A stretch of 64,000 bases of DNA from Candidatus Binatus sp. (GCF_050013435.1 NZ_JBEKFG010000004.1:12967-76966), one strand, 5' to 3'. Positions 1-55,954 are shown, numbered from the stretch's first letter. The notes: generated from the letters alone by a model not told the origin. Translations and numbers: made by a program.

Positions 1-740
1 TCGCATTCGCGCCCAACGCGACCGGCGCGCACAAAGCAACGCTACAGGTCTTCGATAACGCCGCCACGAACCCCCAGACCGTGGCGCTCAGCGGCACCGG
101 CATTGCGGGTCTGACCACCTCGAAGAGCAGCCTGGTATTCGGGAGCGTGAAGTTCGGCGCTAAGCAGGTGAAGTCCTTCAGTGTGACGAATCATCAAACT
201 CAGCCGGTGGCGCTGAGCGAAAGTATCGGCGGGATCAACGCCGCCGATTTCTCGATTACCGGCGGTTCCTGCGCTGCGACTCTGGCCGCCAGGACGGAGT
301 GCGCGATAATCGTGACGTTCACCCCGGGCGCTCTGGGAACGGAATCGGCGACGCTGATGGTCTCTGACAGTCCCGATCCGCTCAGTCCCTACACCGTCAC
401 GCTCAGCACCGGACCGACGATCCCGGCAAGGGTCACGCCGGTCACGCTTGGGTATGGCACGCTGACAAAAAAGAGACTCTCGAAGACCAGGACCGTGACG
501 ATCGGCGACCTGCCGCGATCCCCGCTAGCCTTAGGCGCAACTATCACCGGCGCAAATGGCGACTTCAAAGTGACCGGCGGTACCTGCGGCGCGACGCAAA
601 CGGCAGGCTCATCGTGCACGATCGCGGTGACGTTTAGACCCACGGGCGGCGGATCGGCCGAGAGCGCCAGCATGGCGGTGAACCTCAGCGGTGACCCCAC
701 CAGCCCGCACGCGGTGACCTTGACGGGCACCGGCACGTAG
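1..740 (+). CDS. C-terminal fragment (5' truncated at window edge) of a large secreted protein with repeated Ig-like choice-of-anchor-D/ASPM-type domains
   Basis: Open frame runs to position 1 with no stop. Repeated units of the form 'LSGTG..V.FG.V..G..K...VTN.G..PL.L....G.....F.VTGG.C...LA....C...VTFTP...G...A.L.V.D.P.SP..V.LSGTG', the same domain type as the C-termini of the 1064..4810 and 51484..54132 proteins. Confidence 0.6.
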   Translation, partial: AFAPNATGAHKATLQVFDNAATNPQTVALSGTGIAGLTTSKSSLVFGSVKFGAKQVKSFSVTNHQTQPVALSESIGGINAADFSITGGSCAATLAARTECAIIVTFTPGALGTESATLMVSDSPDPLSPYTVTLSTGPTIPARVTPVTLGYGTLTKKRLSKTRTVTIGDLPRSPLALGATITGANGDFKVTGGTCGATQTAGSSCTIAVTFRPTGGGSAESASMAVNLSGDPTSPHAVTLTGTGT

Positions 741-1063
741 CTCACTCGTCCCCCCCGCCAAATCTCAAAGCTTAGGCCGACACCCTGCTGCGCGGGGCGC
801 ACTGTTGCAGAAATGTGCCATTGCGGATGTATCGGGGCTGCTACGCGGCCATCCGGCGTAGTGATTCTCAGCACAATTTCACGGCATAAGAGTTGCTCCT
901 ACACTGTTTGGCCTAATTTTGCACACTTTCGCCTAAGTCGTTGTATTCAGAAACGTCGGTTTATTTATTGTCTGCTTAGGGATGGATTTGCGATGAACCG
1001 CATGCGTGGCCATGAATGTGGTCAAGTCCCAGCGTTAACCGCCGCTTTCCCAGGGGAATCGTA

Positions 1064-4000
1064 ATGCCTAAATCTGCACTTTGGAAACTCACAGCGCCGT
1101 GCCTGCTGATCATCGCCGCCGCCCTGGCGACTGCGTCCGTCACGGGCGACAACGCCAACATTGTGCTCGGCCAGGGCAACTTCACATATAACACCGCCAA
1201 TCCTCCCGACGCGCACAAACTTTCTTCTCCTCAGGGGGTTGCGGTCGATGCCAGTGGCCACCTTTATATCGCAGACACCGCCAACTCGAGGGTGCTGGGC
1301 TGGAGGGACGAGACGGCTTTCACCAATGGTTCTTCGGCCGACTTGGTTATTGGTCAGCCGGACTTTTTCTCGTTTGCCTCCAACAATGGCGGTGTGAGCG
1401 CGAGCAGCCTCAGCGATCCTTCTGGGGTTGCGGTGGACGGGTCGGGCAACCTCTACGTTGCCGACAAACAGAACAACCGCGTGCTCGAATACAACACGCC
1501 ATTCGGCGGTTCGTTCCCCTCCGCTGGGGGCTCCGCCAGCCTGGTGTTCGGCCAGGCAGACAGCTTTGCTTCGAATACCGCCAATAATGGCGGGCTGAGC
1601 GCGAACAGCCTCAACTATCCCACTGGGGTTGCGGTGGACGCATACGGCCACCTCTACGTCGCCGACTGGATCAACCACCGCGTGCTCGGATACACCTCTC
1701 CGCTTGCCGACACCACCGCCAACCTGGTGTTCGGGCAGGGCGGCAGCTTTACTTCGAATTCCGCGAATAACGGCGGCCTGAGCGCGAACAGCCTGAACTA
1801 TCCCGTTGGGGTTGCGGTGGACTCAAGCGGCGACCTCTACGTCGCGGACAGCCAGAATGACCGCGTCCTCGAATACAACACCCCGGTTATCAGCGGCGCC
1901 ACTGCCGCCAATGCCGTGTTCGGGCAGGGTGGCAGCTTCACTTCGTCGGGCTGCGGCGCGGCGACCGAGAGCAGCCTCTGCCTCCCCTATGGGGTTGCGG
2001 TGGACGGCTCGGGAGACCTCTACGTCGCCGACGAGGACAACAACCGGGTGCTTGAATACAACGCCCCGCTTGCGAACGGTGCCAGCGCTAATTTGGTGTT
2101 TGGGCAGGGCGGCAGCTCCACCTCGCGTGCCTGCAATTACGACACCGGCGTCCTCGTTCCCAGCGCCATCGACCTGTGCGGCCCCTTTGGCATCGCAGTT
2201 GATCCTACCGGCAACCTCTTGGTCGCCGACACCGACAACCACCGCGTGCTCGAATACGATACTCCGCTTGCGCCCAATGCCACTGCCGATGCTGTGCTGG
2301 GGCAGCCTGACTTCTCCCACAAGCAATCAAACTTCGTTGACCTATACTCCCTTTCCAGCCCATACGCGGTCGCGATCGACACAAGCGCAACGCCAAACCA
2401 CCTTTATGTAGCCGACTACTCCAACTCCAGGGTGCTGGCCTGGAACGACGTGGCGACGTTCACCAACGGCACTGCGGCCGACCTGGTCATTGGTCAGCCG
2501 GACCCTTACTCGATTCTCTGCAACGACGGCACCGCACCCGGTGATGTAATTGGACTTGGCGCTGACAGCCTGTGCTACCCATATGGGGTTGCGGTGGACT
2601 CAAGCGGCAACCTCTACGTGGCAGATGGCGGCAACAACCGCGTGCTCGAATACATCACCCCATTCGCCGGTTCGTTCCCCTCCGCTGGAGGGTCCGCCAG
2701 CTTGGTGTTCGGGCAGGGCGGCAGCTTCATCTCGGGTTTGTGCGATTACGACACCACCGATGGCAGCTCCACCGCCAACGACCTGTGTTATCCCTATGGC
2801 GTCGCAGTTGATACTGCCGGCGACCTCTACGTCGCCGACAACGGCAACAGCCGCGTGCTCGAATACAGCGCCCCGCTTACCAATGGCGCCGCCGCCAATC
2901 TGGTGATCGGGCAGGGCGGCAACTTCGCCTCGGATTCGTGCGATTACGACACCGGCGGCGGCACCTCCACCGCCATCGACCTATGCGCCCCCTCTGGGGT
3001 CGCAGTGGACGCAAACGCCGACCTCTACGTCGCCGACAACGGCAACAACCGCGTGCTCGAATACAGCGCCCCGCTTACCAATGGCGCCGCCGCCAATCTG
3101 GTGTTCGGACAGGGCGGCGACTTCGCCTCGGATTCGTGCAATTACGACACCGGCGGCGGCACCTCCACCGCCATCGACCTGTGCGCCCCCTCTGGGGTTA
3201 CGCTGGACTCAACCGGCAACCTCTGGGTCGCCGACCAGTCCAACAGCCGCGTGCTCGAGTACAATACGCCGCTCGCCCCCAACACCACCGCCAATACCGT
3301 CATCGGGCAGGATGCTTTTACTGACAACGACTGCAACCTCGGTGCGGCGAGCGCCAGCGCGGGTAGCCTGTGCTATCCAAGTGGCGCCGCGCTGGGCTCC
3401 GCCGGCCACCTCTACGTCGCCGACACGTCGAACAACCGGGTGCTCGAATACAACGAGCCGCTGAGTACACCATCACCAACCGCCACGCCGACCGCCACGC
3501 CGACGCCGGCGCCGCCTACCATCACGGTAGCTCCTACTTCGCTCTCATTCGGCAAGGTTCCGATAAGCAACTCGGTTACGAAGACTCTGACGGTCCATAA
3601 CACCGGCAAGACCACTTCGCTGGTCATCTCGAGTGCGACCTCGTCCGCCTCTGAATATACCCTAAGCGGCACAGGGACATGCGGTTCGATTCCCGTGACG
3701 GTCGCGCCCAAGTCGTCGTGCACGCTCGCAGTCACATTCACGCCCAACGAGATCGGGGCGCCCGGCGCAACGCTGATGCTCCACGACAACGCCACCGGCA
3801 GCCCACAGACCGTCACGCTCAGCGGCTCAGGCGTGGCCACGATGGCCGTCTCGCCCACCAGCTACGCATTTCCCAGCGAGAAGGACGGCTCCCGCAAGAT
3901 CAAGTCGATCACGGTGCACAACTATCAGAGCACCTCGGTTTCGCTCAGCGAAAGCATGAGCGGGGCCAACGCTGGCGACTTCCAGGTCACAGGCGGCACC

Positions 4001-4810
4001 TGCAGCTCATCGCTGGGCTCCAAGGCGGTCTGTACGCTGATTGTCACTTACTCTCCAACCGCGACGGGTACGGAATCGGCGACCATGACGGTTACCGACA
4101 GCCCCGACCCGCTGGGTCCATACACGGTTTCATTCACCACGGCGGAAACGATTCCGGATTCCATCTCCGCGAAGAAGTTGAACTTCGGCAACGTCGCTCA
4201 GACCGCGTCCAGGACACTGACCATCACGGTGACCAACCTCGCCACCGAGGCGCCGATCACGCTCACCACCCCGACCTTTGGCGGTACCAATCCCTCCGAC
4301 TTCTCGATCTCGAGTAGTAGCGCCACCACCTGCACAGGGTCGCTGGCGGCGGCGTCGAGCTGTACCTACGGGGTGATATTTACACCCAACACCGAAGGCG
4401 CCTTGAGCGGCACGCTTTCAATCGGGGTTGCGCAAGACCCCAATGGCGGTCCGCCCGCGGTCAGCCTGAGCGGAACCGGACTCATACCGATCAAGGTGAA
4501 TCCGTCGAGTCTCTCCTTCGGCACGGTCAAGCAAGGCAAGAAACCGGCCAAGACGGTCACCGTGACCAACAACGGCGGCGCGGCGGTTTCGCTGAGCAAA
4601 AGCATCACCACCGATACCGGTAATCCCGACTTCTCGGTGACGGGCGGGAATTGCGCAGCGTCTCTGGCGGGCGGCGGCACTTCGTGCACCTACACGGTGA
4701 CGTTTGCGCCAAGTCAGACTGGATCGGAAAGTGCCACGCTTGGGGTCAGCGCGGGCGGCGATGGGGCCAGCCCGCATAACGTCAACCTTTCGGGGACTGG
4801 CGGTTCCTGA
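1064..4810 (+). CDS. Giant secreted NHL-repeat beta-propeller protein with Thr/Pro linker and 5 C-terminal Ig-like (choice-of-anchor-D-type) domains
   Basis: Signal peptide MPKSALWKLTAPCLLIIAAALATASVTG with SD AGGGGAA upstream. At least 13 repeats of 'P.GVAVD.SGNLYVAD..NNRVLEY..P' (NHL repeat signature). Linker PSPTATPTATPTPAPPT, then repeated LSGTG-bounded beta-sandwich domains. Confidence 0.75.
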   Translation: MPKSALWKLTAPCLLIIAAALATASVTGDNANIVLGQGNFTYNTANPPDAHKLSSPQGVAVDASGHLYIADTANSRVLGWRDETAFTNGSSADLVIGQPDFFSFASNNGGVSASSLSDPSGVAVDGSGNLYVADKQNNRVLEYNTPFGGSFPSAGGSASLVFGQADSFASNTANNGGLSANSLNYPTGVAVDAYGHLYVADWINHRVLGYTSPLADTTANLVFGQGGSFTSNSANNGGLSANSLNYPVGVAVDSSGDLYVADSQNDRVLEYNTPVISGATAANAVFGQGGSFTSSGCGAATESSLCLPYGVAVDGSGDLYVADEDNNRVLEYNAPLANGASANLVFGQGGSSTSRACNYDTGVLVPSAIDLCGPFGIAVDPTGNLLVADTDNHRVLEYDTPLAPNATADAVLGQPDFSHKQSNFVDLYSLSSPYAVAIDTSATPNHLYVADYSNSRVLAWNDVATFTNGTAADLVIGQPDPYSILCNDGTAPGDVIGLGADSLCYPYGVAVDSSGNLYVADGGNNRVLEYITPFAGSFPSAGGSASLVFGQGGSFISGLCDYDTTDGSSTANDLCYPYGVAVDTAGDLYVADNGNSRVLEYSAPLTNGAAANLVIGQGGNFASDSCDYDTGGGTSTAIDLCAPSGVAVDANADLYVADNGNNRVLEYSAPLTNGAAANLVFGQGGDFASDSCNYDTGGGTSTAIDLCAPSGVTLDSTGNLWVADQSNSRVLEYNTPLAPNTTANTVIGQDAFTDNDCNLGAASASAGSLCYPSGAALGSAGHLYVADTSNNRVLEYNEPLSTPSPTATPTATPTPAPPTITVAPTSLSFGKVPISNSVTKTLTVHNTGKTTSLVISSATSSASEYTLSGTGTCGSIPVTVAPKSSCTLAVTFTPNEIGAPGATLMLHDNATGSPQTVTLSGSGVATMAVSPTSYAFPSEKDGSRKIKSITVHNYQSTSVSLSESMSGANAGDFQVTGGTCSSSLGSKAVCTLIVTYSPTATGTESATMTVTDSPDPLGPYTVSFTTAETIPDSISAKKLNFGNVAQTASRTLTITVTNLATEAPITLTTPTFGGTNPSDFSISSSSATTCTGSLAAASSCTYGVIFTPNTEGALSGTLSIGVAQDPNGGPPAVSLSGTGLIPIKVNPSSLSFGTVKQGKKPAKTVTVTNNGGAAVSLSKSITTDTGNPDFSVTGGNCAASLAGGGTSCTYTVTFAPSQTGSESATLGVSAGGDGASPHNVNLSGTGGS

Positions 4811-6620: not shown

Positions 6621-8048
6621 GTGAGCCGCCGAAAAGCCCTCGTCCTGATCCTCATCTGTTATGTGATCTCGCGCCTGGTTTTCTTCTGGCTGGGCGTCAC
6701 GTTCTGGGGATACTCCATTGGCGATATGCAGGTGCTTGAGCCGATACTGCTCAAACAGCATCTCGTACAAAGTCTATGGTATCTGCATATGCAGCCGCCG
6801 CTTATGAATCTGGCGCTTGGCATATGGATGAAGTTTTTGCCGGACTACGCACCGGCGCTCTGCTTCAAGGTGCTCGGCCTCGGTATCAACCTGTGCATCT
6901 TGTCGGTCATGCTGGACTTGCGCGTGCCGACGCCGTTGGCCCTGTCCGCGACCATCCTTTTCATGCTGAGTCCCGAACAGATCGTCTATGAGAACTGGCT
7001 GTTCAATTCGTGGCCAACTATGTTCCTGCTGACGTTGGCCGCCTGTTGCCTGGCCCGCTTTTTTGTCACGGAGCGCAAGCCATGGGGCGTCGGATGTATC
7101 GTTTCGTTCGGGCTGCTGGTATTCCTCAACACGACGTACCAGATAGTCTGGTTCGGCGCGCTGGTCGGCGCGCTGTATTACTGCGCGCCGGAGTTCAGGC
7201 GGCTGCGCCCCGCGATAGGCTGGACAGGCGGCGCGATCCTGGCGCTCTACCTCAAGAATTTCTTGCTGTTTGGCACATTCGCGACTAGCAGTTGGTTCGG
7301 GATTAACCTGGCGGGCATGACGACCAGTGCGCTGATGGATCAGGATAGGCTCGTGGCGGCTGGCAAGCTACCTGCCTATTCGCTGGGTAGCGAGCTGGAG
7401 CCGCCCAAGGATTACTACGGCGCGGCTGGCCCGGCCACCGGCATACCCGCGCTTGACCGGCGCTTCAAGGAAAACGGCGCTTCTAATTACAACCACCTGG
7501 ACTGGGTCGGCATCGCACGGGAGCGCGCTATCGGCGCGCGGTGGGTATTGCGGCACCGACCTATGGTCTATCTGCGCGAGGTTTGGATGGCGTTTCGCGT
7601 TCAGCTCAGACCCGCGACGTGGTACGGCTATGTGGGAACCATCGCGGATCGCATGCCTTGGTGGCGCGTGTTTTATGAACGACTGATCTTGGCACCCGCC
7701 AGCCGCGAAATTCCGCTAGACCGCGTGCCGGTGCCGTTGGCGTTCGCGGTCGGGTTCCCGCTGATCTGGCTCGTCTCCGGCGTATGGCTATGGAGAGCCA
7801 GCGGGCCGGAGCGTCCGGTGGTGCTGGCTATGTGGCTGACGGTGCTGTACGTCACGGCGACGATTGTGCTTTTCAATGATCGTGAGAATAACCGGCTGCG
7901 CACGCCGATCGATCCCTACTACATCATCCTGGCGGTATTCTTCGCTAATCTGTGCTTCAACGGCATCAAACACACCTGCACTGGTCCCGGCGGTCCCCTT
8001 GCGAAATCTAATTCGCGCGAGCGCGAATGCACCGGAGAATGCCAATAG
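6621..8048 (+). CDS. Polytopic integral membrane protein, possible GT-C-type glycosyltransferase
   Basis: GTG start after GGAAGAG. At least 9 hydrophobic helices plus a C-terminal soluble region. No firm family assignment. Confidence 0.35.
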   Translation: MSRRKALVLILICYVISRLVFFWLGVTFWGYSIGDMQVLEPILLKQHLVQSLWYLHMQPPLMNLALGIWMKFLPDYAPALCFKVLGLGINLCILSVMLDLRVPTPLALSATILFMLSPEQIVYENWLFNSWPTMFLLTLAACCLARFFVTERKPWGVGCIVSFGLLVFLNTTYQIVWFGALVGALYYCAPEFRRLRPAIGWTGGAILALYLKNFLLFGTFATSSWFGINLAGMTTSALMDQDRLVAAGKLPAYSLGSELEPPKDYYGAAGPATGIPALDRRFKENGASNYNHLDWVGIARERAIGARWVLRHRPMVYLREVWMAFRVQLRPATWYGYVGTIADRMPWWRVFYERLILAPASREIPLDRVPVPLAFAVGFPLIWLVSGVWLWRASGPERPVVLAMWLTVLYVTATIVLFNDRENNRLRTPIDPYYIILAVFFANLCFNGIKHTCTGPGGPLAKSNSRERECTGECQ

Positions 8049-8842: not shown

Positions 8843-10357
8843 CTATCCGTCGACGCCCGGGAGTGGAATCTGCGGCGCTTCGACATGCAGACCATATGAG
8901 AGCCAGGTCCAGAACAGCACCAAACCGTCTTGGCTCGCGGCCGTGCGCGGGTAGGTCAGCAAAAGCGGATTGCCGGCCAAGTCGGTTCCCGCCATCCACA
9001 GATAGGTTAGGACGCTTCTGTCTGGCTGGTTCGGGAAGTTCGGCGGCGCCAGCGGAAATTCTGGTGTCAGCGGGAATTGCGCCGAGTCGCCCTGCTGGGA
9101 ATCGCCGTAGGCGCAGTCATACATCAAGGCGAGCCCGAACGGCGCCAAGGGCAGGACGCCATTGGCCTGAGGCCGCTCCAGGATGAACTCGGCCGTGCGG
9201 CCGGTGAACCCCTGGCTGCTCAGACCGCCCAGGGTCACAGCAGCCGCGGGAAGCGTGAACATCTGCATTTGTCCGGTCGCTTGGTTGCCGAACACGAACC
9301 ACACGAAAGTGTTGCCGTTGCCGAGCCCGCCCCAGGTGCCATCGCCCGGCCCCGCAGCGAAATGGGTCTCGCCGTACTCGTCGGCGACGAAAATATCGAG
9401 GCTGATGGTGTCCTCGGGCGAGACCGGGAAGTTTGGAAGCGACCAAGCCGCGAAGGGCAGGCTCTCGATCCACGTGTAGTAGGTGGAAAAGCTGAACGGT
9501 ACTTCGACGGCGTCGGCGAAGTCGCCCGTGTTTTCATCATTAGGACCCTCGATGATCGTCCAGCTCGACCAGCATTGGGAATTGGTCCCTGCTTGGTAAA
9601 GATCATTGCCGCTGGCGTCCAAGCCCAGCCACATCGCCGCTTCGGCTCGGTTTGGCGCGGTGGGTTGATAAAAGACCATCGGCACGGGCCATTGCGCCTG
9701 GATATAGTAGAACTGCTTTGCCGGATTGGTCAGCTGGGCGCCGCTCCATATGCCGGAGTTTGCGATGCCGAAGTTTGCCGGGCCGCCGTCCGGAAAGACC
9801 GGCTTTTGCTGGACCTCTTCCAGTCGTAGCGTTTGGCCCTCCGGGATTGAGGGGCCTCGCTCGCGCACAACCTTCCGAGGGGGCGCAAGCACGAAATCGC
9901 GGGAGACGGCGCGAAGCCATCGTGCGTGACGTCGCGGAGATCGCGTCGGGTCGGGCCGCGGCGGATAGCCTCGAGCGATCAACTCCGAATTGGGGAGGGC
10001 CAGGTCAGCGCCGGTCAGCGCGGGGATCTTCCGCCCGACCGGCTCCCGCTTGGGCGCCGCGGTGGGCGGCGACGAAGGATCGCACGTGAGAAGCACCGTA
10101 TGAGCTTCCACGGCGCCGTCTTCGTCGATGCAAGTGAGCCCCAGTTTGATCGGCCGCACGCCTGGCGGCAGGCGAGTATGAAACCGCACGATTCCAGCGT
10201 CGTCCGCGTCGAGCCGGAACTCCCGATCAGGCGCCCCTGGTTCATGCAGATAGCAGGTGGATCTGGCGCGCACCTGGAGCGAAACGGTCGTCTCCACGTG
10301 CGGGGAGAGGTTGTAGTCGAAGCGTTTTCCCGGCGAATGAGTTGTGGGCTCTGACAT
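8843..10357 (-). CDS. Peptidase G1 (eqolisin/scytalidoglutamic peptidase-like) family protein with about 200-aa N-terminal extension
   Basis: SD GGGAGGGA before ATG (MSEPTTH). Motifs align to scytalidoglutamic peptidase: SGIWSGAQL ~ SNWAGAVL; AAMWLGLDASGNDLYQAGT ~ ASAWVGIDGDTCETAILQTGV (catalytic Gln); YYTWIESLP ~ YDAWYEWYP; TAEFILERP ~ NAEWIVEDF (catalytic Glu). Confidence 0.6.
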   Translation of the reverse strand: MSEPTTHSPGKRFDYNLSPHVETTVSLQVRARSTCYLHEPGAPDREFRLDADDAGIVRFHTRLPPGVRPIKLGLTCIDEDGAVEAHTVLLTCDPSSPPTAAPKREPVGRKIPALTGADLALPNSELIARGYPPRPDPTRSPRRHARWLRAVSRDFVLAPPRKVVRERGPSIPEGQTLRLEEVQQKPVFPDGGPANFGIANSGIWSGAQLTNPAKQFYYIQAQWPVPMVFYQPTAPNRAEAAMWLGLDASGNDLYQAGTNSQCWSSWTIIEGPNDENTGDFADAVEVPFSFSTYYTWIESLPFAAWSLPNFPVSPEDTISLDIFVADEYGETHFAAGPGDGTWGGLGNGNTFVWFVFGNQATGQMQMFTLPAAAVTLGGLSSQGFTGRTAEFILERPQANGVLPLAPFGLALMYDCAYGDSQQGDSAQFPLTPEFPLAPPNFPNQPDRSVLTYLWMAGTDLAGNPLLLTYPRTAASQDGLVLFWTWLSYGLHVEAPQIPLPGVDG

Positions 10358-10418
10358 GCGGTCCCTCCCTTGTGGTTGCGGAATCGGGGCTAACACCCCC
10401 GGTCGACCCGAACTCCAC

Positions 10419-10488
10419 AATTAGTGAACGCGAGACTAGCGGCGATACGAGCGTGCTTCAACCGTCGAGCCGACGTCGCCCCCGCCGA
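10419..10488. repeat. 75-bp dispersed direct repeat, copy 3 (family B)
   Basis: AATTAGTGAACGCGAGACTAGCGGCGATACGAGCGTGCTTCAACCGTCGAGCCGACGTCGCCCCCGCCG. Contains the stop codon of the LysM gene. Confidence 0.8.
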
Positions 10489-25920: not shown

Positions 25921-26769
25921 ATGAAATCGAAAGTTGCGGGTTGGCTATTGTTGTGTGCCGTAGCTTGCACGCTGATGGCCGCGCCGGCGATGGCTCAGCC
26001 TCGCTTCGGCGCCTACGACGACGGCCACGTTTGGCGCGACCCGGGATGGTGGCATACCAATAATCCCCAGTGGATGTATGCGTATCATCCTGAATGGGTA
26101 GTGGAGCGGCGCGATTGGTGGCAGTACGACCACCAATATCATCCGGACTGGTTCTGGGCGCCGTTCTGGGGATCGTATCCGCTTTGGACCTGGGGCGCTC
26201 CTTACGAAGGCGTCTATCACGACTACTGGTGGTGGCATCGGTACCATCCCGATTGGATGTATGCGAACCATCCTGAATGGGGTGAGCCATATGGCGGGTG
26301 GCTGCGCGCCGATTACGGCGCGCATCCCGGATGGTTCACGTCGAATTATTGGCGCGACCATCCGCGCGACTGGGCCCATCCTGACCGGGAATTCTGGAAT
26401 CGTGAGAACGGCCGCTTCAACAATTATTTAAACGAGCATCCAGAGCGTCGTTCTCAGCTAAGCGCCGGAGCAGGCCGGGGCGGCGCGCGGGGCCAGGAAC
26501 ACGGCGTCGAGGTCCAGCGCGGTACCGAACACCCGGGCGGCGCGCGGGGCGAGGAACACGGCGTCGAGGTCCGGCGCGGTTCCGAACACCCGGGCAACAT
26601 GCGCGGTGCCGAACACGAGGGAGGCGCCGAGCGGGGCGCCCGTCCGGGCGGCGAGCATCCTAATGAAGCCGCTCGCGGGCACACTGAAAATGCCCCTCAT
26701 CCGGAGCATCATGAGGAATCGCACCATGAGGGCGGTGGCGGCTCCGGCGGCGAACGGGAAAGGAAGTGA
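25921..26769 (+). CDS. Secreted Trp/His-rich repeat protein (YHPDW/HPEW repeats, then RGxEHGVEVxRGxEHPG repeats)
   Basis: SD GGAAGGAGG before ATG. Signal peptide MKSKVAGWLLLCAVACTLMAAPAMA. Composition is strongly biased to W, H, Y, P, E and G. Confidence 0.55.
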   Translation: MKSKVAGWLLLCAVACTLMAAPAMAQPRFGAYDDGHVWRDPGWWHTNNPQWMYAYHPEWVVERRDWWQYDHQYHPDWFWAPFWGSYPLWTWGAPYEGVYHDYWWWHRYHPDWMYANHPEWGEPYGGWLRADYGAHPGWFTSNYWRDHPRDWAHPDREFWNRENGRFNNYLNEHPERRSQLSAGAGRGGARGQEHGVEVQRGTEHPGGARGEEHGVEVRRGSEHPGNMRGAEHEGGAERGARPGGEHPNEAARGHTENAPHPEHHEESHHEGGGGSGGERERK

Positions 26770-37598: not shown

Positions 37599-38873
37599 GT
37601 GGAGGAGGACATGGGCACCAAAACAGCGATCGAATTAATGCAAGAGGAGTTGTTCAGAAAATCGCAAATGTTCGAGCGATATTCGGGATTCTGGTACGAG
37701 CAGCAGTCGTTCCTAGAAATGACCCGGATTGCAGGCTCAAGTCAGCTGGAATTCCTTTCCAAGGCAACCGAAGCGGCGCGTCTGTCGTTTAGCGCGGCTG
37801 ATCTAGTGGGTAGTTCGCTTTTGAAAACCCCTCTCGCTGCCCTTACGAAATCTTTTGCTGAACAGGCGACAGCCTTTCAGCAGATCAATAGATCGATAGC
37901 TAGCGATATGGGACGATTTGCACTGATTTCTGAGCAAATCGCGGCTCGGTTCCGTATGCCAGCGATCGAAGAAATGGCCGCGCTTAGAAATATGCTCGAA
38001 GCTGCTCACGAGGCCACAAGGTTCGTTGCGGAAAAAATGAATTTCCTTCGGGCGGCGGAGTCTTTTCAGGTCGCTTGGATCAATATCGAATCTCCGTTGA
38101 ATTCGCTTAAAGCCTTGTCTGATCTGAACGGGATTGGAAACGCCCTCAAGACTTTCCAACCCTTCGAATCTGAGTTAACGGGTATCCTACGATCGTCTCT
38201 AGGTGACTGGCGGAACGTGACAATTCCACAACCAGTCTATGAAGACGCTCTCGAAAGAGTTGATTTCTACGCGGGACAAGGCTTTGACCTCGAACTCACA
38301 AATTTCCCACAGCCCGCATTCGACCTGATTCTTGATGCGGCAGAGATCCGGCCCAGGTCGCCCTCGCTGGCGGTACGCAAGCTTGAAGGCGCGGTCACGA
38401 TAGAGCTTCTCACGGATCACGAATCTATGATGGGATTCGCCTACGATCTGTTGTTTGAACTCGAGAGCCGATTTAGAGCTTTCATCCACCGGCAGATGGT
38501 CAGCAGGTTCGGAGAGCAGTGGTTACAGCGTCAGGTTCCGGGTCCGATGCGGAAAGCGTGGGAAAGTAAACGAGCGGTGGCCCTTGAGCGAGGCGAACCC
38601 ATACAGGATTTGATTTTCTACGCAGACTTTACAGACTATGTAACAATCATATGCAGACGCGATAACTGGAATAGTGCTTTTCGAGAAGTGTTTCTCCGAA
38701 AGGAGGGCGTCCAGGAGGCATTTTATCGTCTCTTCCCGATCCGGATTTGCACAATGCACGCGCGACCGATCACACAGGCAGACCTGCTGCTGCTCTTCGT
38801 AGAGTCGGACCGCCTGCTCAAAGCCATCGACGCTAAATCGCGAAGAGCCACCAGAGAGGTCACGGCCCGATAA
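37599..38873 (+). CDS. HEPN-domain protein (C-terminal Swt1/Abi-like HEPN with Rx4H motif) in low-GC islet
   Basis: The C-terminal 140 aa read ..DLIFYADFTDYVTIICRRDNWNSAFREVFLRKEGVQEAFYRLFPIRICTMHARPIT.. (R-x4-H HEPN signature). The N-terminal 280 aa are helical and unassigned. Local GC is about 48-50% against about 66% in the flanks. Confidence 0.5.
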   Translation: MEEDMGTKTAIELMQEELFRKSQMFERYSGFWYEQQSFLEMTRIAGSSQLEFLSKATEAARLSFSAADLVGSSLLKTPLAALTKSFAEQATAFQQINRSIASDMGRFALISEQIAARFRMPAIEEMAALRNMLEAAHEATRFVAEKMNFLRAAESFQVAWINIESPLNSLKALSDLNGIGNALKTFQPFESELTGILRSSLGDWRNVTIPQPVYEDALERVDFYAGQGFDLELTNFPQPAFDLILDAAEIRPRSPSLAVRKLEGAVTIELLTDHESMMGFAYDLLFELESRFRAFIHRQMVSRFGEQWLQRQVPGPMRKAWESKRAVALERGEPIQDLIFYADFTDYVTIICRRDNWNSAFREVFLRKEGVQEAFYRLFPIRICTMHARPITQADLLLLFVESDRLLKAIDAKSRRATREVTAR

Positions 38874-42088: not shown

Positions 42089-43834
42089 ATGAAACTACTG
42101 CTTGCTTGTGGATGCTGCAGGCCATCAAAGTTCAAACGACACCGTGATACGACCGACGCGCCAATTGAGGCCACCCCCGAAGAACTGCAGGCGATAAGGC
42201 TGCAGCTGGCTGAGATCGAGCAATCGCTCTCGCGCCTATGGGGTCCGACAATTTGGAGCCGCACGCCCGAGTGCATCCAGGTACGCGCCGAGGCGGCGGA
42301 CCTGATCGACCGGCACTTCGACGGCATCGTCGACCAGTGGGTAGAGGCGATCGCCGCCATCACCGACAGCCGCGCTGAATACGATGAAAAGGCGCGCAGA
42401 GCCAGTTTGATCAATGCGCTGATCCGGCTGGGCGATCATCTGCGCGATCCCGACGACATTTGCACCTACGTTTATCTGCGCAAGCATTGCCAGGAGGGGA
42501 TGCTGGCGCGGGCCAAACCCTCTCAGTTCAACACTATCCACATCGCGCTCAAGCAAATAATTCTCAATCACGTAAAATCCTCAATGACCGGTCCCGCGAT
42601 GGAATTGGTGCGCGACCTGGTGGTCGCGGCAATCGACGAGCGGCGCCTGATGGTCTCGCAGTTCTACATCGAATCGCGCGAACGGTTGCTGCGCGAATCC
42701 GAAGAGAAGTACCGCAACACGATCGACCACGCGCCCGATCCAATGTATGAGATCGAAGCGGATACCTGGATCGTGACCGGGCTGAATGCGGCTGCCCTGC
42801 GGCTCCATCAAACGGAGGTGCCAGCAGCCGCCAGAGGTTGGTATGACCACGGCCATGACAAGATGCAGATTATTGGATATCCGATCACAGATTTCGTACC
42901 GCCGGAGCTAAGGGGAAGGGTGATCGACAGCCTGGAGACGGTTTTGCGCCAGGGATCGGCACAGAGCTCGGAATTTCCGATCGGGCCGCTCTTCTTCGAC
43001 GTAAACATCGCGCTGATCACCTATGGCAAGAAGGAATTCATCCAGATGATCTTGCGCGACGTGACGCAACGGCGCGACATGCTCGACTCGCTGATCAAGG
43101 CCGAGCGATTGGCGGCGGCGGGCACCTTCGCGGCGGGCGTGGCGCATGAGGTGAACAACCCGTTGGCGTCGATTTCATCGCTGGTTCAATCGATCCTGAC
43201 CGGCGAGAACGACCCCCAGCGGCGCACCACGCTGCACACCATCCTGTCCCAGATCACGCGCATCTCGAGCACGCTCAAGGACCTGGTGAATTTCGCGCGA
43301 CCGACCACGGCGCAACGCAAGCCGGTGGACGTCAACGGGCTGATCGGCGAGACGCTGCGGCTGATCAGCTACAACACCCGCTTCAGCGGCATCCAGGTTG
43401 AACCCATCCTTGATCCCGATCTGCGCCGCGCGTTTGCCGACGACAACGAAATTCAGCAGGTGCTGCTCAATCTGCTGTTCAACGCCGCCGACGCCTCCCC
43501 TGCCCAGGGCGGCGTGATCAAGGTGATCACCGAGAACCAGCGCGCCGGACAGGGCGCGGACAAATCGCGCCGGGTGGTTATCAAGGTGGTGGACAACGGG
43601 ATCGGAATCCCGCGCGAATATCTGGAACGCGTGTTCGATCCATTCTTCACCACCAAGCCCGCGGGCGCCGGCGTCGGACTGGGGCTGTCGCTATGCCAGC
43701 GCATGATCCTGTCCAACCAGGGCACCATTCGGGTTGACAGCGAGGTCGGCCACGGCACCACCATCACCATCACGCTGGCGGCCGCGGAGGATTCGGTCCG
43801 CGCGGAGCAGGCAGCGAGCATGGCCGCGTCTTGA
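42089..43834 (+). CDS. Sensor histidine kinase (PAS + HisKA + HATPase)
   Basis: H-box HEVNNPLASISS. N/G boxes NLLFNAADAS, VVDNGIGIPREYLERVFDPFFTTK, GVGLGLS. PAS region around residues 200-320. Confidence 0.8.
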   Translation: MKLLLACGCCRPSKFKRHRDTTDAPIEATPEELQAIRLQLAEIEQSLSRLWGPTIWSRTPECIQVRAEAADLIDRHFDGIVDQWVEAIAAITDSRAEYDEKARRASLINALIRLGDHLRDPDDICTYVYLRKHCQEGMLARAKPSQFNTIHIALKQIILNHVKSSMTGPAMELVRDLVVAAIDERRLMVSQFYIESRERLLRESEEKYRNTIDHAPDPMYEIEADTWIVTGLNAAALRLHQTEVPAAARGWYDHGHDKMQIIGYPITDFVPPELRGRVIDSLETVLRQGSAQSSEFPIGPLFFDVNIALITYGKKEFIQMILRDVTQRRDMLDSLIKAERLAAAGTFAAGVAHEVNNPLASISSLVQSILTGENDPQRRTTLHTILSQITRISSTLKDLVNFARPTTAQRKPVDVNGLIGETLRLISYNTRFSGIQVEPILDPDLRRAFADDNEIQQVLLNLLFNAADASPAQGGVIKVITENQRAGQGADKSRRVVIKVVDNGIGIPREYLERVFDPFFTTKPAGAGVGLGLSLCQRMILSNQGTIRVDSEVGHGTTITITLAAAEDSVRAEQAASMAAS

Positions 43835-43853
43835 GAATCGAAATGCGATGAAC

Positions 43854-45272
43854 AACGACGCTTCATGGACCGCACAGGAGCGCGGACCGTACCGGCTGCT
43901 GATCGTCGAGGACGAACCCTTGATGCGCTCGATCATCGTTCAGCTGGCGCGCAGCGAAGGCTACGAGGTGACGGAGGCGCCGGCCGCCGCGGTCGCGCTG
44001 CACATCTTCGAAAAAGAAAAAATCGATCTCGCGATTCTCGACCTTAACCTGACCAGCGGCGGCAGCGGACTCGATCTGCTGCGCAAGATGCGCGAACTCG
44101 ACCCCGAGGTGATGGGAATAATCGTCACCGCCTACGCCAGCGTCGAGTCAGCCGTCGAGGCGCTGCACCAGGGCGCTTACGATTACATCACCAAGCCGTT
44201 TGCCAACGATCACCTGAAGAAGGTGATGCGCAACGCGCTCGAGGGCAAGGCGCTGTTCAGGGAGAACCGTTTTCTGCGCCAGGAACTGCGCGAGAAGTAT
44301 CGCTTCGAGAGCATCATCGGCAAAAGCGACGCTATCGAAAGCGTGTTCCGCGTCATGGAAAAAGTCGCGCGCACCGACACCAGCGTGTTGATCACCGGTG
44401 AGTCCGGCACCGGCAAGGAACTGGTCGCCCGCGCGATTCATTTCAGCTCCGACCGGGCCAGCAACCGCTTCCTGCCGATCAATTGCGGCGCGCTGCCCGA
44501 GAACCTGCTCGAGAGCGAACTGTTCGGCTACAAACGCGGGGCATTCACGGGCGCCGGGGCGGACAAGGTGGGCCTGCTCAAGGCCGCCGACAAGGGCACC
44601 GTCCTGCTCGACGAGATTGGCGAGTTGCCGCTCGCGCTGCAGGTCAAACTGCTGCGCGCGCTCCAGGAGCGCGAGGTCTACCCGCTGGGCGCCAACGATC
44701 CGGTGGCGTTCGACGTGCGCGTGCTGTGCGCCACCAATCGCAACCTCGAATCCGAGGTCAAGGCCGGCCGCTTCCGCGAGGAACTGCTCTACCGAATCAA
44801 CGTCATCAACATCAACCTGCCCGGTTTGCGCGAGCGTCAGGACGATATTCCCCTGCTCGCCAACCATTTCCTGCGCAAGTACGAGAAGTCGTTGCCGCGA
44901 ACTGCGATGCGCTTTTCCAAAGGCGCGATGCGCCTGCTGATCAACTACGCGTGGCCGGGCAACGTCCGCGAACTCGAAAACGCCGTCGAGCGCGCCGCGA
45001 TTCTGGCCGAGACCGACGTCATCCATTCGCACGATTTGCCCGACAAGCTGCGCAGCACGTCGCCGGTGATGGCGAGTATCGAGAACTCGGGCCTCACGCT
45101 CGAGGAGCTCGAGCGCGAGCATATCAAACGCGTGCTCGACAAGGTCGAAAACGACAAGGTGAGGGCCGCGCAGGTGCTCGGCATTCACCTCTCGACGCTC
45201 TATCGCAAGGTTCAGCGCTACCACCTCGACGGCGACCTCCCGGTGAATCAGGAGCCTGCGCGCTCGGCATGA
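43854..45272 (+). CDS. Sigma-54-dependent response regulator (NtrC family: REC + AAA+ sigma54-activator + Fis HTH)
   Basis: [22 protein letters not shown]+ GESGTGKEL with GAFTGA motif and ESELFGY. C-terminal [17 protein letters not shown]. Confidence 0.85.
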
Positions 45273-45360
45273 GGGGATGGCAACAGGCGTGGCAATCCGG
45301 CAGTCAAGGATATAGACTTTTCGCTAGACCGACTGGACGGCAGCCGGCGCGGAGAAAAAT

Positions 45361-45576
45361 ATGGATCTGTTTGCGCCAACTCACCTGCTGATCATTCTGC
45401 TGATCATTCTGGTCATCTTCGGGCCCAGCAAGCTCGGCGATGTCGGCGGCGCGATGGGCAAAGCGATTCGCGATTTCAAACGCGCGATGAACGAGCCCGA
45501 CGATACGGCCAAGACGGTAGCCAAGCCCGACGAGGCGAAGGCCGCCGATGTTGTAAAGCCCGACAAGATTTCCTGA
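45361..45576 (+). CDS. tatA: Twin-arginine translocase subunit TatA/E
   Basis: MDLFAPTHLLIILLIILVIFGPSKLGDVGGAMGKAIRDFKRAM, the canonical TatA TM plus amphipathic helix. Confidence 0.85.
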   Translation: MDLFAPTHLLIILLIILVIFGPSKLGDVGGAMGKAIRDFKRAMNEPDDTAKTVAKPDEAKAADVVKPDKIS

Positions 45577-45983
45577 TCCGCCGCGCTCCGCCAACTTTCC
45601 CGGACATTCACTTAATGCGCCTGCGATAACGCGCGTCCGTAACACGCGTCATCGATCCTTTCGATCCGTCCGCAGCGTGGGCCCAGCCTGATTGGATGCG
45701 CCATGCGCCCGACATCAAGACGGTCCCGGCGCGCCGCACAAGCGAGTGCGGCAGACTGCCCGAGCGCGCACGCGATCAAATCCAATTTTGTTCGCGCTGA
45801 TCGCACTGACCGCCATCAGCGTATTCGCCGCGAGGAGGATCGGTGTACCTGATGGAGCTGAAGGTGCTCTGCAGAACCAAATTGGTCTGGAAAATCTTGC
45901 AGAGGGAGGCTGTCTGGATTAAAAACAATTTGTAATCAGGAAGTTAAAATCAAAGAGCAAATTGTGATCGCGCGGATTGCGTT

Positions 45984-45999
45984 CGGCATAAAAATTGCT
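45984..45999 (+). promoter_or_regulatory. Candidate sigma-54 (-24/-12) promoter for the upstream cytochrome operon
   Basis: cGGCAT-AAAAA-TTGCT, with GG and GC 12 nt apart as in the TGGCAC-N5-TTGC consensus. Same element ahead of the second cytochrome operon. An NtrC-type activator is encoded 700 nt upstream. Confidence 0.45.
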
Positions 46000-46017
46000 T
46001 AAATAACAGAGCAATGA

Positions 46018-46328
46018 TTTTAGAAATATTAATGAGCGGGCATTTTCCCAAGGTTTACAAGGCGGTCGCCGAAGCGCCCAAAACCATGCTGACTCTTTCG
46101 GATACGACCACATCGCCTTTTGGATACAGTTGTGCCGCTCGGGACAATGTGCGACCGCCGGCATTGAGCCGCTGAACGAACGTTTTTAACGACGGCAGGC
46201 GCCTGAAACGGAGACGGCAAGATGGACAGGGTTACCGCCGATCAGTCCAAAGAGTTGATGGGTTTGCCGCTCAGGAGCCACCTAATGGTACTGGCTAGCC
46301 ACACGAACCGACGGCAGATGGTGAGCGA
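46018..46328 (+). promoter_or_regulatory. Long conserved 5' leader (about 210 nt shared with 54657..54863), candidate cis-regulatory RNA / upstream-ORF region
   Basis: About 75% identity over 210 nt with blocks of exact identity (TTTAGAAATATTAATGAG, GGGCATTTTCCCAAGG, CGGATACGA, CTTTTGGA-ACAGTTGT, CGACGGC, GGAGACGGCAA-ATGGA). In this copy the conserved block ends at an ATG opening a 36-codon upstream ORF (46221..46331), directly ahead of the cytochrome start. Confidence 0.5.
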
Positions 46329-47513
46329 ATGCGCTCGTTGATGTCAGGTACACTAGTAGTGTTGCTGCTCGCGGCGCCGGCGTGGGTGCTGGGCGGCAGT
46401 TCGGAGGCGTCGGCGGCGTCGCCCGAGTTAGCGGCGGTCGCGCCCGGCATAACCTATCCTGTGCTCCCCACCGAGCTGACGCCGCCGACCTACGACTATG
46501 CGGCGCCCGAGACGTGCGCCGGTTGTCATTTTATAGAGGAAGGGAACTTACCTGGCCTCGACCACACTTCGCGTGTATTGGGCGTTTGGTTTGAGAGCGC
46601 TGCCGCTGTCAACGCTTCGTGTACGGCCGGTCCTACGACTTCGGGCGGGGTTACGACCCCCGGCGCTCCATTTGCGTGCTGTACAGGGAAAGGAGCAGGC
46701 ACTTGCTCGAGCATGTGGCAATTGACGGGCAGCGGATGGTTCGCCTCGCGGCACGCGCAGTCCGATTATGCCACGACCGAGAACGGGTTTTGCGCGAAGT
46801 GTCATTCGCCCCTTCAAGCTTACGCTCCCGCAAGCTTCAGCAATGGAGCCGTTGCCAATGCTCCCTCTGTTCCGCAGCAGCGATTCCAAGCTGTGACCTG
46901 TGCAACGTGTCATCCTCCGGATAACATCACCGCGCAGATCGGCGCGTTGAATCCAAGTGCTATGGACGGCGGGGCGGTCTCCATCTATCTCTGGAAGGGC
47001 TACAACAATCCCGCCTCCTATCAGACTCTGAGCACCGGAGTGAACTCCGACGGCACTTCGCAGGAAGACCTGCTATGCCTCAACTGCCATGAGCAGCGTC
47101 ACAACACCGACGATTCGGCCATGTGGGCTATGATGACGACCACCTACGGTCCTAACGGTGGTCCGGTCAGGTGCATCGATTGCCACATGTCGGAGTACCA
47201 GTTCATCGGTGGCGGCAGCACCGGCCTGCCGCTGCTCGAGGAAAGGTTTCACGACTGGAACGTTGGCGCGGACCTTCCTTACTCCTGCGGCGCGGTAGGA
47301 TCAGTGTCGGGATGTCATAACAGCACATATTCCACGTTCACTGTAGCCGACGCGCAGAACCTTATCCCGTTCATTAAAGAGCAGCACACCGATTGGTGGA
47401 CCCTGCCGCCGTTCAATGGAGTGGTACAGGCCGCAGTGCCGGCACACGGGGCGCCTACGCTCATTGAGTACAAGACACTAGAGCGAGAGATATCGAAAAT
47501 TGACGCCATGTGA
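46329..47513 (+). CDS. Secreted multiheme c-type cytochrome (5 CxxCH + one CX8CH)
   Basis: Signal peptide. CAGCH, CAKCH, CATCH, CLNCH, CIDCH, plus LPYSCGAVGSVSGCH (Cys-8 residues-Cys-His). Confidence 0.75.
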   Translation: MRSLMSGTLVVLLLAAPAWVLGGSSEASAASPELAAVAPGITYPVLPTELTPPTYDYAAPETCAGCHFIEEGNLPGLDHTSRVLGVWFESAAAVNASCTAGPTTSGGVTTPGAPFACCTGKGAGTCSSMWQLTGSGWFASRHAQSDYATTENGFCAKCHSPLQAYAPASFSNGAVANAPSVPQQRFQAVTCATCHPPDNITAQIGALNPSAMDGGAVSIYLWKGYNNPASYQTLSTGVNSDGTSQEDLLCLNCHEQRHNTDDSAMWAMMTTTYGPNGGPVRCIDCHMSEYQFIGGGSTGLPLLEERFHDWNVGADLPYSCGAVGSVSGCHNSTYSTFTVADAQNLIPFIKEQHTDWWTLPPFNGVVQAAVPAHGAPTLIEYKTLEREISKIDAM

Positions 47514-47526
47514 GCGCAGTAGGAAG

Positions 47527-50336: not shown

Positions 50337-50351
50337 GGCGACGAGTGACCG

Positions 50352-51281: not shown

Positions 51282-51483
51282 AATTTCCCTCACGCTTCAG
51301 TGTGCCGAGTCAAAAGTGGCATCGCTGAACATTGGACCAGTTAAGAGAGCAATCAGGTTAACTTAGAGTAGCTAGAGGCGCCGATATAATTGTTGCCTAA
51401 TCCTCCCAACGGGATCATTAGGCTCGCTTAAGCCGTGTTCCAGTGGTCCGGTTGTTTTCCCCGTCAACACGGGGGAGAAGCAA

Positions 51484-54132: not shown

Positions 54133-54621
54133 GCGGTGCGATCGGGCGCGAACGATCCCGCCGCAATAGAACGAAACGCCCGTCCGGCCATCGTGGCATG
54201 GCATTGGCGAGAACGATATTGGCGATGATCAGCTCGCGCCATGGTCGGCGGCGTCGGCGAATCATGGTATCGTCGCCTAATCAATGTCCCTCGGCAACGC
54301 CGCCCGGACTTCATTCAGAGGAATGGCGCCGACATGACGAGGGATATCGACGGGTGTCCCTCCTCAAAACCTCATCGGGGGCGATGATGCTGTCGTGGAC
54401 ATTGTCCGCGCCAAAAGTTCCATCCGAACACGAGACGGCCGGAAAGCGCTATCGACGATTGCTCACGGCGCCGGAAGTTCGAATCTTGCCCTTTACACTC
54501 GCCTTTGAAGGTGCCGCGCGGAACAGAGCCGCGGCTGGAAAAATCTTGCAACGGGGGGGGCGGTTTGGACTACAAAGCGACTTAAAATGCGAGCGTAAAA
54601 TGCGGCCGGGAGAATTGGGGC

Positions 54622-54637
54622 CGGTATAAAAATTGCT
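54622..54637 (+). promoter_or_regulatory. Candidate sigma-54 (-24/-12) promoter for the mtrAB-like operon
   Basis: cGGTAT-AAAAA-TTGCT. Identical architecture and flanking ATAAAAATTGCTTA as at 45984. Confidence 0.4.
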
Positions 54638-54656
54638 TACTTGGCAGGCTGACGTC

Positions 54657-54860
54657 TTTAGAAATATTAATGAGAGGGCATTTTCCCAAGGGTCACAAGG
54701 CCGCCACGGAAGGGTCCTAAAGCTGAATGGTTCTTCCGGATACGATCGCGTTGTCTTTTGGACACAGTTGTCCTGTCTTGGGGGCGATGTGTAACCGACG
54801 GCGGTAAGCCGCTAGAGGGCGCGTTTGCCGACGGCGGACGCCCGAAATGGAGACGGCAAT
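54657..54860 (+). promoter_or_regulatory. Conserved 5' leader, second copy (see 46018..46328)
   Basis: Aligns to 46018..46223. Here the conserved GGAGACGGCAATATGGA ends exactly at the decaheme cytochrome start codon. Confidence 0.5.
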
Positions 54861-55883: not shown

Positions 55884-55954
55884 AGCGGGAGGCACAGGAA
55901 AGCACGGCATCGCTGGGCCGCACCGCGTTTTGCAACCGGCCCGGGAGGAAAGTC

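Follow-up and report, generated by a model that had tools for sequence, protein, structure and literature searches.

Introduction

A stretch of 64,000 nucleotides (nt) from Candidatus Binatus sp. (GCF_050013435.1, NZ_JBEKFG010000004.1:12967-76966; the whole stretch is termed the window) contains at 1064..4810 a gene encoding NHL-repeat β-propellers followed by a Thr/Pro-rich linker and immunoglobulin (Ig)-like domains, in which neighboring propeller blades are nearly identical in DNA over part of their length. The question raised by this locus is whether the near-identity records the recent gain of a blade, as an earlier reading of the DNA alone (the sequence-only reading) had proposed, or the copying of part of one blade onto its neighbor. 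Intragenic gene conversion is argued for here and, taken together with the architecture of an exported double propeller on an Ig stalk and with the proposal of a binding head, is considered probable. The locus would then provide a worked example of near-identical intragenic propeller repeats that reflect conversion with a fixed blade number and not copy gain. The features of the gene, with the evidence for each, are as follows.

1064..4810 (+): NHL-propeller/Ig-stalk gene, 1248-amino-acid (aa) product; open reading frame (ORF), Pfam, NCBIfam, and exact look-up
1052..1057 (+): Shine-Dalgarno-like AGGGGA, 7-12 nt 5′ of the ATG at 1064; read from the sequence
1064..1135 (+): predicted Sec signal peptide, aa 1-24, ending in ...AALATA and followed by SV; hydrophobic core and A-T-A motif read by eye
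1148..2257 (+): propeller 1, NHL blades 1-6, aa 29-398; motif segmentation, AlphaFold model, and Foldseek matches with a target-normalized TM score (TMt) of 0.83-0.87
2258..3451 (+): propeller 2, NHL blades 7-12, aa 399-796; blade identity matrix, direct repeats, model, and fold search
~3452..3520 (+): Thr/Pro-rich linker EPLSTPSPTATPTATPTPAPPTI; translation, Tandem Repeats Finder (TRF), and low predicted local distance difference test (pLDDT) where the tail model begins
3521..4804 (+): four tandem ASH-type/choice-of-anchor D Ig-like domains; NCBIfam, Pfam, model, and Foldseek

The Near-Identical Blade Pair

The sequence-only reading had described units of approximately 180 nt at 2830..3240 that are more than 95% identical. 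The near-identity was recovered, with 174 of 180 positions (96.7%) matching between two copies at an offset of 198 nt, although the repeat unit proved to be 198 nt (66 aa), 180 nt being the length of the high-identity tract, and the repeat is a single pair and not an array. The two copies and their structural elements, with strand positions read from the AlphaFold2 model, are the following.

2821..3000 (+): predicted conversion tract, copy A; blade 9 strands B-C, followed in blade 10 by strand D and the Cys-bridged D-A loop
3019..3198 (+): predicted conversion tract, copy B; the same elements in blades 10 and 11

The flanks of the tract match at 79% (left) and 75% (right), the remaining blade pairs at 65-83%, and only one 180-nt pair in the gene exceeds 90% identity; the binomial tail for 176/181 matches over 2820-3000 against a 78% background is approximately 1e-13. 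TRF reports a period of 198 at 2703-3263 with 2.8 copies and 86% matches, a count that includes the more diverged blade 9. The six differences between the copies comprise four non-synonymous changes (S596N, I615F, N620D, and D627N) and two synonymous changes, and show no selection signal. A diversity-generating retroelement was considered as the source of the pair and rejected: the differences (G/A, A/T, G/A, A/G, G/A, and A/G) are not adenine-specific, and no reverse transcriptase is found by Pfam among the ORFs of the window. In standard propeller topology, D-A loops are located on the "top" face, the usual binding face, and the D-A loop of the tract would, on the model, lie on this face.

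Two further traces of likeness between blades are present in the gene.

1533..1877 (+): older, weaker homogenized blade pair 3/4, period 183 nt, 83% matches; TRF and repeat search
2633..2727 (+): 95-nt tract, 89% identical to 1472-1566, at the blade 8/9 versus blade 2/3 junction; repeat search

The second of these links the two propellers, and its similarity exceeds the background.

Probable Gene Conversion at Constant Blade Number

In the proposed mechanism, a 180-nt part of one blade, comprising two strands and a long Cys-bridged D-A loop, would have been copied onto the neighboring blade (blades 10 and 11) by intragenic gene conversion, the number of blades remaining at 12 throughout. The evidence is provided by the homologs P0001 (97% protein identity), P0002 (73%), and P0003, P0004, and P0005 (62-63%), each of which has 12 blades. 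The loci of P0001, P0002, P0003, and P0005 share a DUF2231 gene and a small secreted protein gene as neighbors, and LysM and ROK genes are additionally found at the P0001, P0003, and P0005 loci but not on the P0002 contigs, which are short; because these neighboring genes are shared, the four are positional orthologs of the gene at 1064..4810.

The whole gene is 83.5% identical in DNA to that of P0002, whereas copies A and B are 77.5% and 76.9% identical to their P0002 counterparts. Because the two copies are 96.7% alike within the gene but only approximately 77% identical to P0002, the pattern is the one characteristic of conversion. In P0002 a different pair is homogenized, namely blades 9/10 (88% over 180 nt, offset 195), and its blade 11 is short (59 aa) and 42% identical to its blade 10. 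By contrast, P0001, with 97.8% DNA identity, carries the same pair at 94.4% with substitutions of its own. As P0001 has this pair and P0002 has homogenized another, the conversion would date to after the split from the P0002 lineage and before the split from the P0001 lineage.

The rival proposed in the sequence-only reading is the gain of a blade by very recent tandem duplication, for which the 96.7% DNA identity of adjacent units speaks. The extent of the tract speaks against it: at 180 nt it is shorter than the 198-nt period and is bounded by background similarity on both sides, whereas identity over one entire period would have to follow from a tandem duplication; over the final 18 nt of the period and the next 46 nt, the match is 75% only. 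Furthermore, orthologs with as little as 62% identity still have 12 blades, and the C-terminal half of blade 11 (NLWVAD...) is orthologous to that of P0002 blade 11. Blade number, tract length, and the P0002 comparison thus make a recent blade-gaining duplication very improbable. Two points weigh against conversion as such: the direction of transfer between the two blades cannot be fixed, and cycles of unequal crossing-over, in which a blade is gained and then lost with no net change, would leave a similar pattern.

Homogenization of blade pairs is also seen elsewhere in the family. The pair is blades 4/5 in P0003 (79% protein identity) and blades 2/8 and 4/6 in P0005 (76%), and the loop type at a given blade position, with or without a Cys pair, varies between orthologs. 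In protein sequence, blades 5/6 of P0052 (97%) and blades 3/8 of P0073 (95%) are near-identical, the latter pair spanning different propellers. Since the pairs in P0052 and P0073 are even more alike, patchy homogenization recurs family-wide. In P0125, a partial protein of 791 aa from the 90%-identity cluster of the window protein, blade 10 has a blade-9-like patch (YDTTDG for YDTGGG), which suggests further micro-conversion among blades 9-11 in strains approximately 97% identical.

A comparison may be drawn with the WD40 propellers of the fungus Podospora anserina. The HNWD repeats are reportedly numerous and near-identical, polymorphic in number, and under positive selection at binding-face positions, unlike the gene at 1064..4810 with its single near-identical 180-nt pair and conserved blade number. 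What is shared is the homogenization of blades in DNA by exchange between repeats, described as concerted evolution inside the propeller for the HNWD/NLR WD40 genes het-d, het-e, and het-r (PMC1805685; PMC2873952; 10.1101/2025.01.13.632504).

The Gene, Its Product, and the Double Propeller

The open frame containing the gene extends over 1016-4810 (+). Translation probably starts from the ATG at 1064, because AGGGGA lies 7-12 nt upstream and the close orthologs P0001 and P0002 share the N-terminus MPKSALWKL with the identical Met start; the frame, the Shine-Dalgarno-like motif, and the ortholog start confirm that 1064..4810 is a single real ORF. An exact look-up returned RefSeq WP_428104815.1 of Candidatus Binatus sp., annotated as "choice-of-anchor D domain-containing protein", as identical to the product, and the protein was therefore already known under a domain-level name. 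The domain models that the sequence-only reading had suggested for a search were both positive: Pfam NHL (PF01436) matches the 1248-aa protein with 291.6 bits (E 5.6e-90, 11 stretches, cut-off 20), and NCBIfam choice-of-anchor D (NF012200) with 196.4 bits against a cut-off of 45 in four stretches. Pfam TEN_NHL (PF25021) scores 120 bits, and Pfam Ig matches in the tail include Cep192_D4 (135.5 bits, four stretches), ASH, and HYDIN_VesB_CFA65-like. Scans for sigma-70 promoters and terminators around the gene gave nothing above shuffled expectation.

The product is an ordinary, probably exported bacterial protein belonging to a very large uncharacterized family, 6816 of 8000 scored candidates having E <= 1e-10; many members are annotated merely as "NHL repeat-containing protein" or, by pipeline, as "sugar lactone lactonase YvrE". 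The closest species-representative genomes in a genome contig scan are metagenome-assembled genomes of Binataceae with 51-53% identity, none being closer. Literature searches combining Binatota or Binatia with NHL or propeller proteins returned nothing relevant, and no relevant title or abstract was found for "choice-of-anchor".

Motif-based segmentation with a regular expression yields 12 blades of 52-71 aa. In the blade identity matrix, the pairs of similar blades are 1/7, 2/8 (60%), and 3/9 (62%), and direct DNA repeats spaced by 1140-1161 nt match propeller 1 to propeller 2; on these grounds, propeller 2 would be a duplicate of a six-blade unit. The AlphaFold2 model of aa 25-801, built with 75 homologs, has a mean pLDDT of 91.4 and a predicted template modeling score (pTM) of 0.89, and contains twelve four-stranded blades. 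The best Foldseek matches in the Protein Data Bank (PDB) are six-bladed NHL propellers, namely Drosophila Thin (6d69), Pizza6, TRIM71, and PknD (1rwi), and each spans approximately 350-370 columns, or half of the model, with TMt 0.78-0.87. The description as an NHL-repeat β-propeller is thus borne out by the NHL score and the confident 12-blade model. The head is modeled as two six-bladed propellers, the two closed rings being deduced from fold-search coverage and the 6+6 sequence pattern.

Assembly and the 11-Blade Form

A study on fungal WD40 repeats reportedly describes near-identical tandem repeats as unreliable in short-read assemblies (10.1101/2025.01.13.632504), and mishandling of such repeats by short-read metagenome assemblies could in principle have produced the repeat in the window as an expansion or a chimera, a possibility for which the sequence-only reading had allowed. 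The comparison of contigs does not uphold it. The exact 1248-aa protein is found on 13 contigs, and in the six contigs retrieved, from six assembly records (four JGI samples and two ENA assemblies), the gene shows 0 differences from the window over 3747 nt, all six copy-distinguishing substitutions being reproduced in each. Furthermore, both units are present in P0001, where they carry distinct substitutions, all orthologs are 12-bladed, and the 12-blade model is confident. An expansion artefact in the window is accordingly extremely improbable.

A shorter form also exists. P0129, a 1182-aa member of the 90%-identity cluster, is the window protein shortened by exactly 66 aa and has a hybrid blade 10/11. 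This 11-blade form is found on two MEGAHIT (k141_) contigs, from ENA assemblies ERZ27250065 (77.7 kb) and ERZ27249980, where the gene (L035:10001-13549 and L036:1563-5111) is otherwise DNA-identical to the window. The junction of the deletion is located in a short exact repeat.

2943..2982 (+): 40-nt exact repeat, also at 3141-3180, with the junction of the 198-nt deletion; contig comparison

That the 12- and 11-blade alleles are both natural, through unequal recombination between the 97%-identical tracts, accords with the occurrence of P0129 on two contigs from two ENA assemblies, with a 40-nt exact repeat long enough for homologous recombination, and with a deletion that is in frame and leaves a clean hybrid blade. 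The contigs themselves point the other way. Both are MEGAHIT contigs, no JGI contig in the comparison carries the deletion, and L035 has no strain marker linked to it (0 single-nucleotide polymorphisms (SNPs) from the window over 14.6 kb apart from the deletion). A second short-repeat deletion is found in MEGAHIT contigs only: the linker of the upstream S53 peptidase gene has a 48-nt (16-aa) indel with its junction within a 59-nt exact repeat of the TA/TP linker, the long form being at L001:5982-9677 and the short form at L005:6030-9677 and L035:6030-9677. The short linker is combined with 12 blades in L005 and with 11 in L035, and the covered part of L036, with 11 blades, matches the long linker form, as would be expected of independent collapses. 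Eleven blades would also break the 6+6 geometry conserved in all close orthologs. Because linker and blade forms assort independently, no SNPs are linked, and the geometry is broken, assembly collapse is favored over a real deletion, and natural repeat-number polymorphism is considered possible but somewhat unlikely. The expectation of repeat-number variation in the sequence-only reading is thus matched by the 11-blade form in two MEGAHIT contigs but not by the six contigs with identical 12 blades. A 77-nt pattern across the 11-blade junction had 0 matches in a metagenome contig collection, as did a 12-blade control pattern that is present on JGI contigs; the collection therefore does not include these samples, and the negative result carries no weight.

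It is quite unlikely that the gene is a recombination-prone contingency locus at which both alleles are natural and propeller 2 alternates between six blades and a state that is broken or has five. If it were, recurrent conversion of Cys-bridged top-face loops would diversify ligand specificity across a large family of bacterial surface propellers, as a bacterial counterpart of fungal HNWD. The observation that public short-read assemblies differ here by exactly one unit is, in addition, a warning for repeat counting in metagenome-assembled genes.

Export, Linker, and Ig Tail

The N-terminus has a hydrophobic core at aa 9-24 with Kyte-Doolittle means of up to 2.6, and the mature protein has 22 Cys that form 11 local pairs, seven in blade loops and four in Ig domains (one each). 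Because of the hydrophobic N-terminus with its A-T-A motif and the 11 local Cys pairs, export is likely, and the claim that the protein is secreted is supported to that degree. The chain ends in ...NVNLSGTGGS directly after the last Ig strand. It has no C-terminal anchor or sorting signal, NCBIfam sorting-signal models giving no match to the 1248-aa protein, and no hydrophobic segment past aa 40, the top 19-residue hydrophobicity being 1.5 and within a blade. Two findings count against the explanation favored here: no sortase, exosortase, rhombosortase, or type IX secretion system (T9SS) is found by Pfam among the ORFs of the window, and neither an outer-membrane secretion route nor an anchor was identified for the product. 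The suggestion to look for PEP-CTERM/exosortase or other sorting systems accordingly yielded none in the window ORFs or the protein C-terminus.

The tail, aa 797-1248, opens with the Thr/Pro linker TPSPTATPTATPTPAPP, in which TRF detects a 12-nt repeat at 3479-3504, and continues with four Ig-like domains bounded approximately at 3521-3835, 3842-4147, 4157-4483, and 4490-4804, each with its Cys pair. The Thr/Pro linkers and multi-Ig domains of the sequence-only reading are well founded, the linker being evident in the translation and the domains in four NF012200 stretches. The tail model has a pLDDT of 88.2, and its Foldseek matches are the ASH arrays of the ciliary central-apparatus HYDIN/CFAP proteins and of CEP192, with looser matches to bacterial adhesin stalks, RTX adhesin extender domains, and PrgB Ig domains. 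The likeness to choice-of-anchor D proteins (NF012200; ASH/PapD-like PF15780, PF22073, and PF22544) extends to four domains above the cut-off. The name of this family refers to members with varied C-terminal anchors, and the absence of such an anchor distinguishes the present protein from anchored members. A terminal signal such as PEP-CTERM, LPXTG, or a T9SS C-terminal domain is common in the family without being required.

The same type of tail recurs in the window on other proteins. It shares 50% identity with its counterpart in the S53 peptidase encoded immediately upstream and 45% with that of the product of 51484..54132, and the linker-plus-Ig tail is thus carried by three different heads in one genome, an S53 peptidase and two kinds of NHL propeller. 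Because of these fusions, the tail appears to serve as a common module for positioning or retention, with the functional part in the head. The shared tail on different heads points to a positioning module in Binataceae.

Function of the Propeller Head

The propellers are proposed to act as non-catalytic ligand-binding heads, which the linker and Ig stalk would hold off the attachment point. Overall, a ligand-binding double-propeller head on a spacer stalk, with a tail of shared positioning or retention function, is assessed as marginally better than an even chance; the surface or matrix binding role put forward in the sequence-only reading is plausible. The binding-head proposal is made because the best relatives are non-catalytic NHL propellers, enzyme hits are partial, and the invariant columns are structural only. 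In the alignment of 75 homologs, the invariant columns comprise only the repeated structural G/Q/P/D/R/L/A/V motif, no blade-specific conserved His, Glu, Cys, or acidic residue is found, and the parts that vary among orthologs are the top-face loops.

The sequence-closest solved relatives are Pizza/PknD and the NHL domain of a teneurin-like protein. The sensor of Mycobacterium tuberculosis PknD (1RWI/1RWL) and the Pizza proteins, the design of which was derived from it, are likewise six-bladed NHL propellers, the sensor bacterial and extracytoplasmic, with sequence matches of 3e-22 and 1e-30; no catalytic function is known for these propellers, to which the head is likened with the TMt given above. 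PknD differs in having one propeller, blades of approximately 42 aa, and a membrane helix leading to a kinase, whereas the present protein has two propellers, blades of 52-71 aa with long, mostly Cys-bridged D-A loops, no membrane segment, and a C-terminal Ig stalk. The NHL domains of teneurins and of bacterial teneurin-like proteins (PF25021; 9IFO and 7BAN) are similar in being long-bladed and part of large extracellular proteins (4.8e-23 over approximately 300 residues); by contrast, the present protein has no YD-shell, FN-plug, or toxin domain, and its NHL unit is present twice, with ASH-type Ig domains after it.

The principal alternative is that the propellers are catalytic, acting as a lactonase, lyase, or esterase of the SGL, arylesterase, or strictosidine-synthase-like kind in a degradative pair with the S53 peptidase. 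It draws on weak partial matches to SGL (E 8.4e-16), Arylesterase, Phytase-like, and SdiA-regulated models and on the JGI label "sugar lactone lactonase YvrE" of relatives, which are the points that weigh against a non-catalytic head, and on the adjoining secreted peptidase with the same tail. No single stretch of the enzyme-family matches is significant by itself, coverage being limited to the generic blade motif, and the best sequence and fold matches (the PknD sensor, TRIM-NHL, and teneurin NHL) are non-enzymatic; the lack of conserved blade-specific His, Glu, or Cys, and the absence of the sedolisin neighbor from the syntenic P0003 locus, are likewise at odds with it. Catalytic propellers are therefore judged unlikely. 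An SMP-30/gluconolactonase/LRE-like assignment (PF08450; COG3386) was rejected, as the match is best over positions 145-211 of the 246-position profile and no blade-specific acidic residue or His is conserved. In a test against the NCBIfam models NF033206/NF035926, ScyF scored 113 bits against a cut-off of 350, and ScyE_fam scored 88.8 against a cut-off of 80, summed from two partial stretches of which the best covers 6-164 of 333. The ScyE_fam score appears to reflect generic blade similarity, raised by the presence of 12 repeats, and no scytonemin gene context is found around 1064..4810.

A second alternative, that the product is an accessory of extracellular electron transfer (EET), arises from the neighborhood of its paralog. 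NHL proteins recur in multiheme-cytochrome clusters, including UetH/UetI of Tenderiales and Gallionella (10.1101/2022.05.06.490989; PMC9900912) and DFE_0451/DFE_0463 of Desulfovibrio ferrophilus (PMC9769857), and the gene at 51484..54132 is followed directly by those for a decaheme cytochrome and an MtrB/PioB porin. These NHL proteins resemble the product of 51484..54132 and not that of 1064..4810, which has only approximately 30% identity to this cluster-associated paralog. Of the window ORFs, those rich in CxxCH lie at 46329, 54825, 59613, and 61173, with 5, 10, 6, and 11 motifs, respectively; none is within 41 kb of 1064..4810. The neighbors at four ortholog loci comprise DUF2231, small secreted proteins, LysM, ROK, TlyA, and XseAB genes with no cytochrome. 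An EET role for the product of 1064..4810 is consequently improbable, and the statement that such proteins sit beside multiheme cytochrome clusters applies to 51484..54132 but not to 1064..4810.

Neighboring Genes and the Wider Window

The sequence-only reading had counted three genes of this kind in the window, the other two being as follows.

1..740 (+): end of the upstream S53 peptidase gene, coding for C-terminal Ig domains; gene calls on contig L001, Pfam, and PDB search
51484..54132 (+): second NHL+Ig gene, 882-aa product; Pfam, NCBIfam, sequence, and neighbors

The count holds for the second of these. Its product has approximately 11 short NHL blades of 52 aa, a TP/TA linker, and two choice-of-anchor D domains (NHL 185 bits; choice_anch_D 84.9 bits), and its blades are approximately 30% identical to those of 1064..4810 and 67% alike among themselves. 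It does not hold for 1..740, which shares the linker and Ig domains only. The upstream protein has 1231 aa, including a TA/TP linker of approximately 200 aa, and its three Ig domains share 50% identity with Ig 1-3 of 1064..4810; it matches Pro-kuma_activ (E 1.1e-25, Pfam) and, among PDB entries, kumamolisin 1t1e (3.3e-21) and structures of tripeptidyl-peptidase 1. The gene thus encodes a kumamolisin/sedolisin-like S53 peptidase and not an NHL protein. A fixed functional unit of sedolisin and NHL protein was rejected, the sedolisin being absent beside the syntenic P0003 ortholog.

Downstream of the NHL gene, three small genes are encoded on the opposite strand.

4950-5432 (-): DUF2231 membrane protein
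5451-5831 (-): 126-aa secreted protein
5849-6097 (-): 82-aa Cys-rich protein with CC..CC..CC motifs

The genes for the DUF2231 protein and the 126-aa protein, the two having no family assignment, are convergent to the NHL gene at every ortholog locus examined, and the 82-aa Cys-rich protein could bind metal. Further on, 6621..8048 (+) encodes a 475-aa multi-pass membrane protein with no Pfam match, and the 525-aa product of 8843..10420 (-) contains a Peptidase A4 (eqolisin-like) domain, so that two acid-type secreted peptidase families, S53 and Peptidase A4, occur within 10 kb.

The region 42089..63294 of this Binataceae genome is a candidate EET cluster, which appears more interesting than the gene at 1064..4810, and in which the decaheme cytochrome and the MtrB/PioB porin lie immediately 3′ of 51484..54132. 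Its other features are the following.

Within 42089..63294: regulators, a histidine kinase and a sigma-54 response regulator
46329-49086: two multiheme cytochromes
49083-50336: Kelch propeller
50352-51281: TPR protein
54825-55883: decaheme cytochrome
55817-58210: MtrB/PioB porin, followed by two monoheme cytochromes c
59613-62474: 6-heme and 11-heme cytochromes
62464-63294: cytochrome b561

Two minor observations concern the remainder of the window. A 57-nt tandem repeat at 26478..26617 (2.1 copies, 95%) is located where the ORFs 25618-26769 (+) and 26458-27165 (-) overlap. Finally, a 424-aa ORF at 37599..38873 (+), located between pheST/IHF/MerR genes and a large family-2 glycosyltransferase gene, has a C-terminal Swt1-like HEPN domain (E 1.4e-6) and may be a gene of defense or toxin type.

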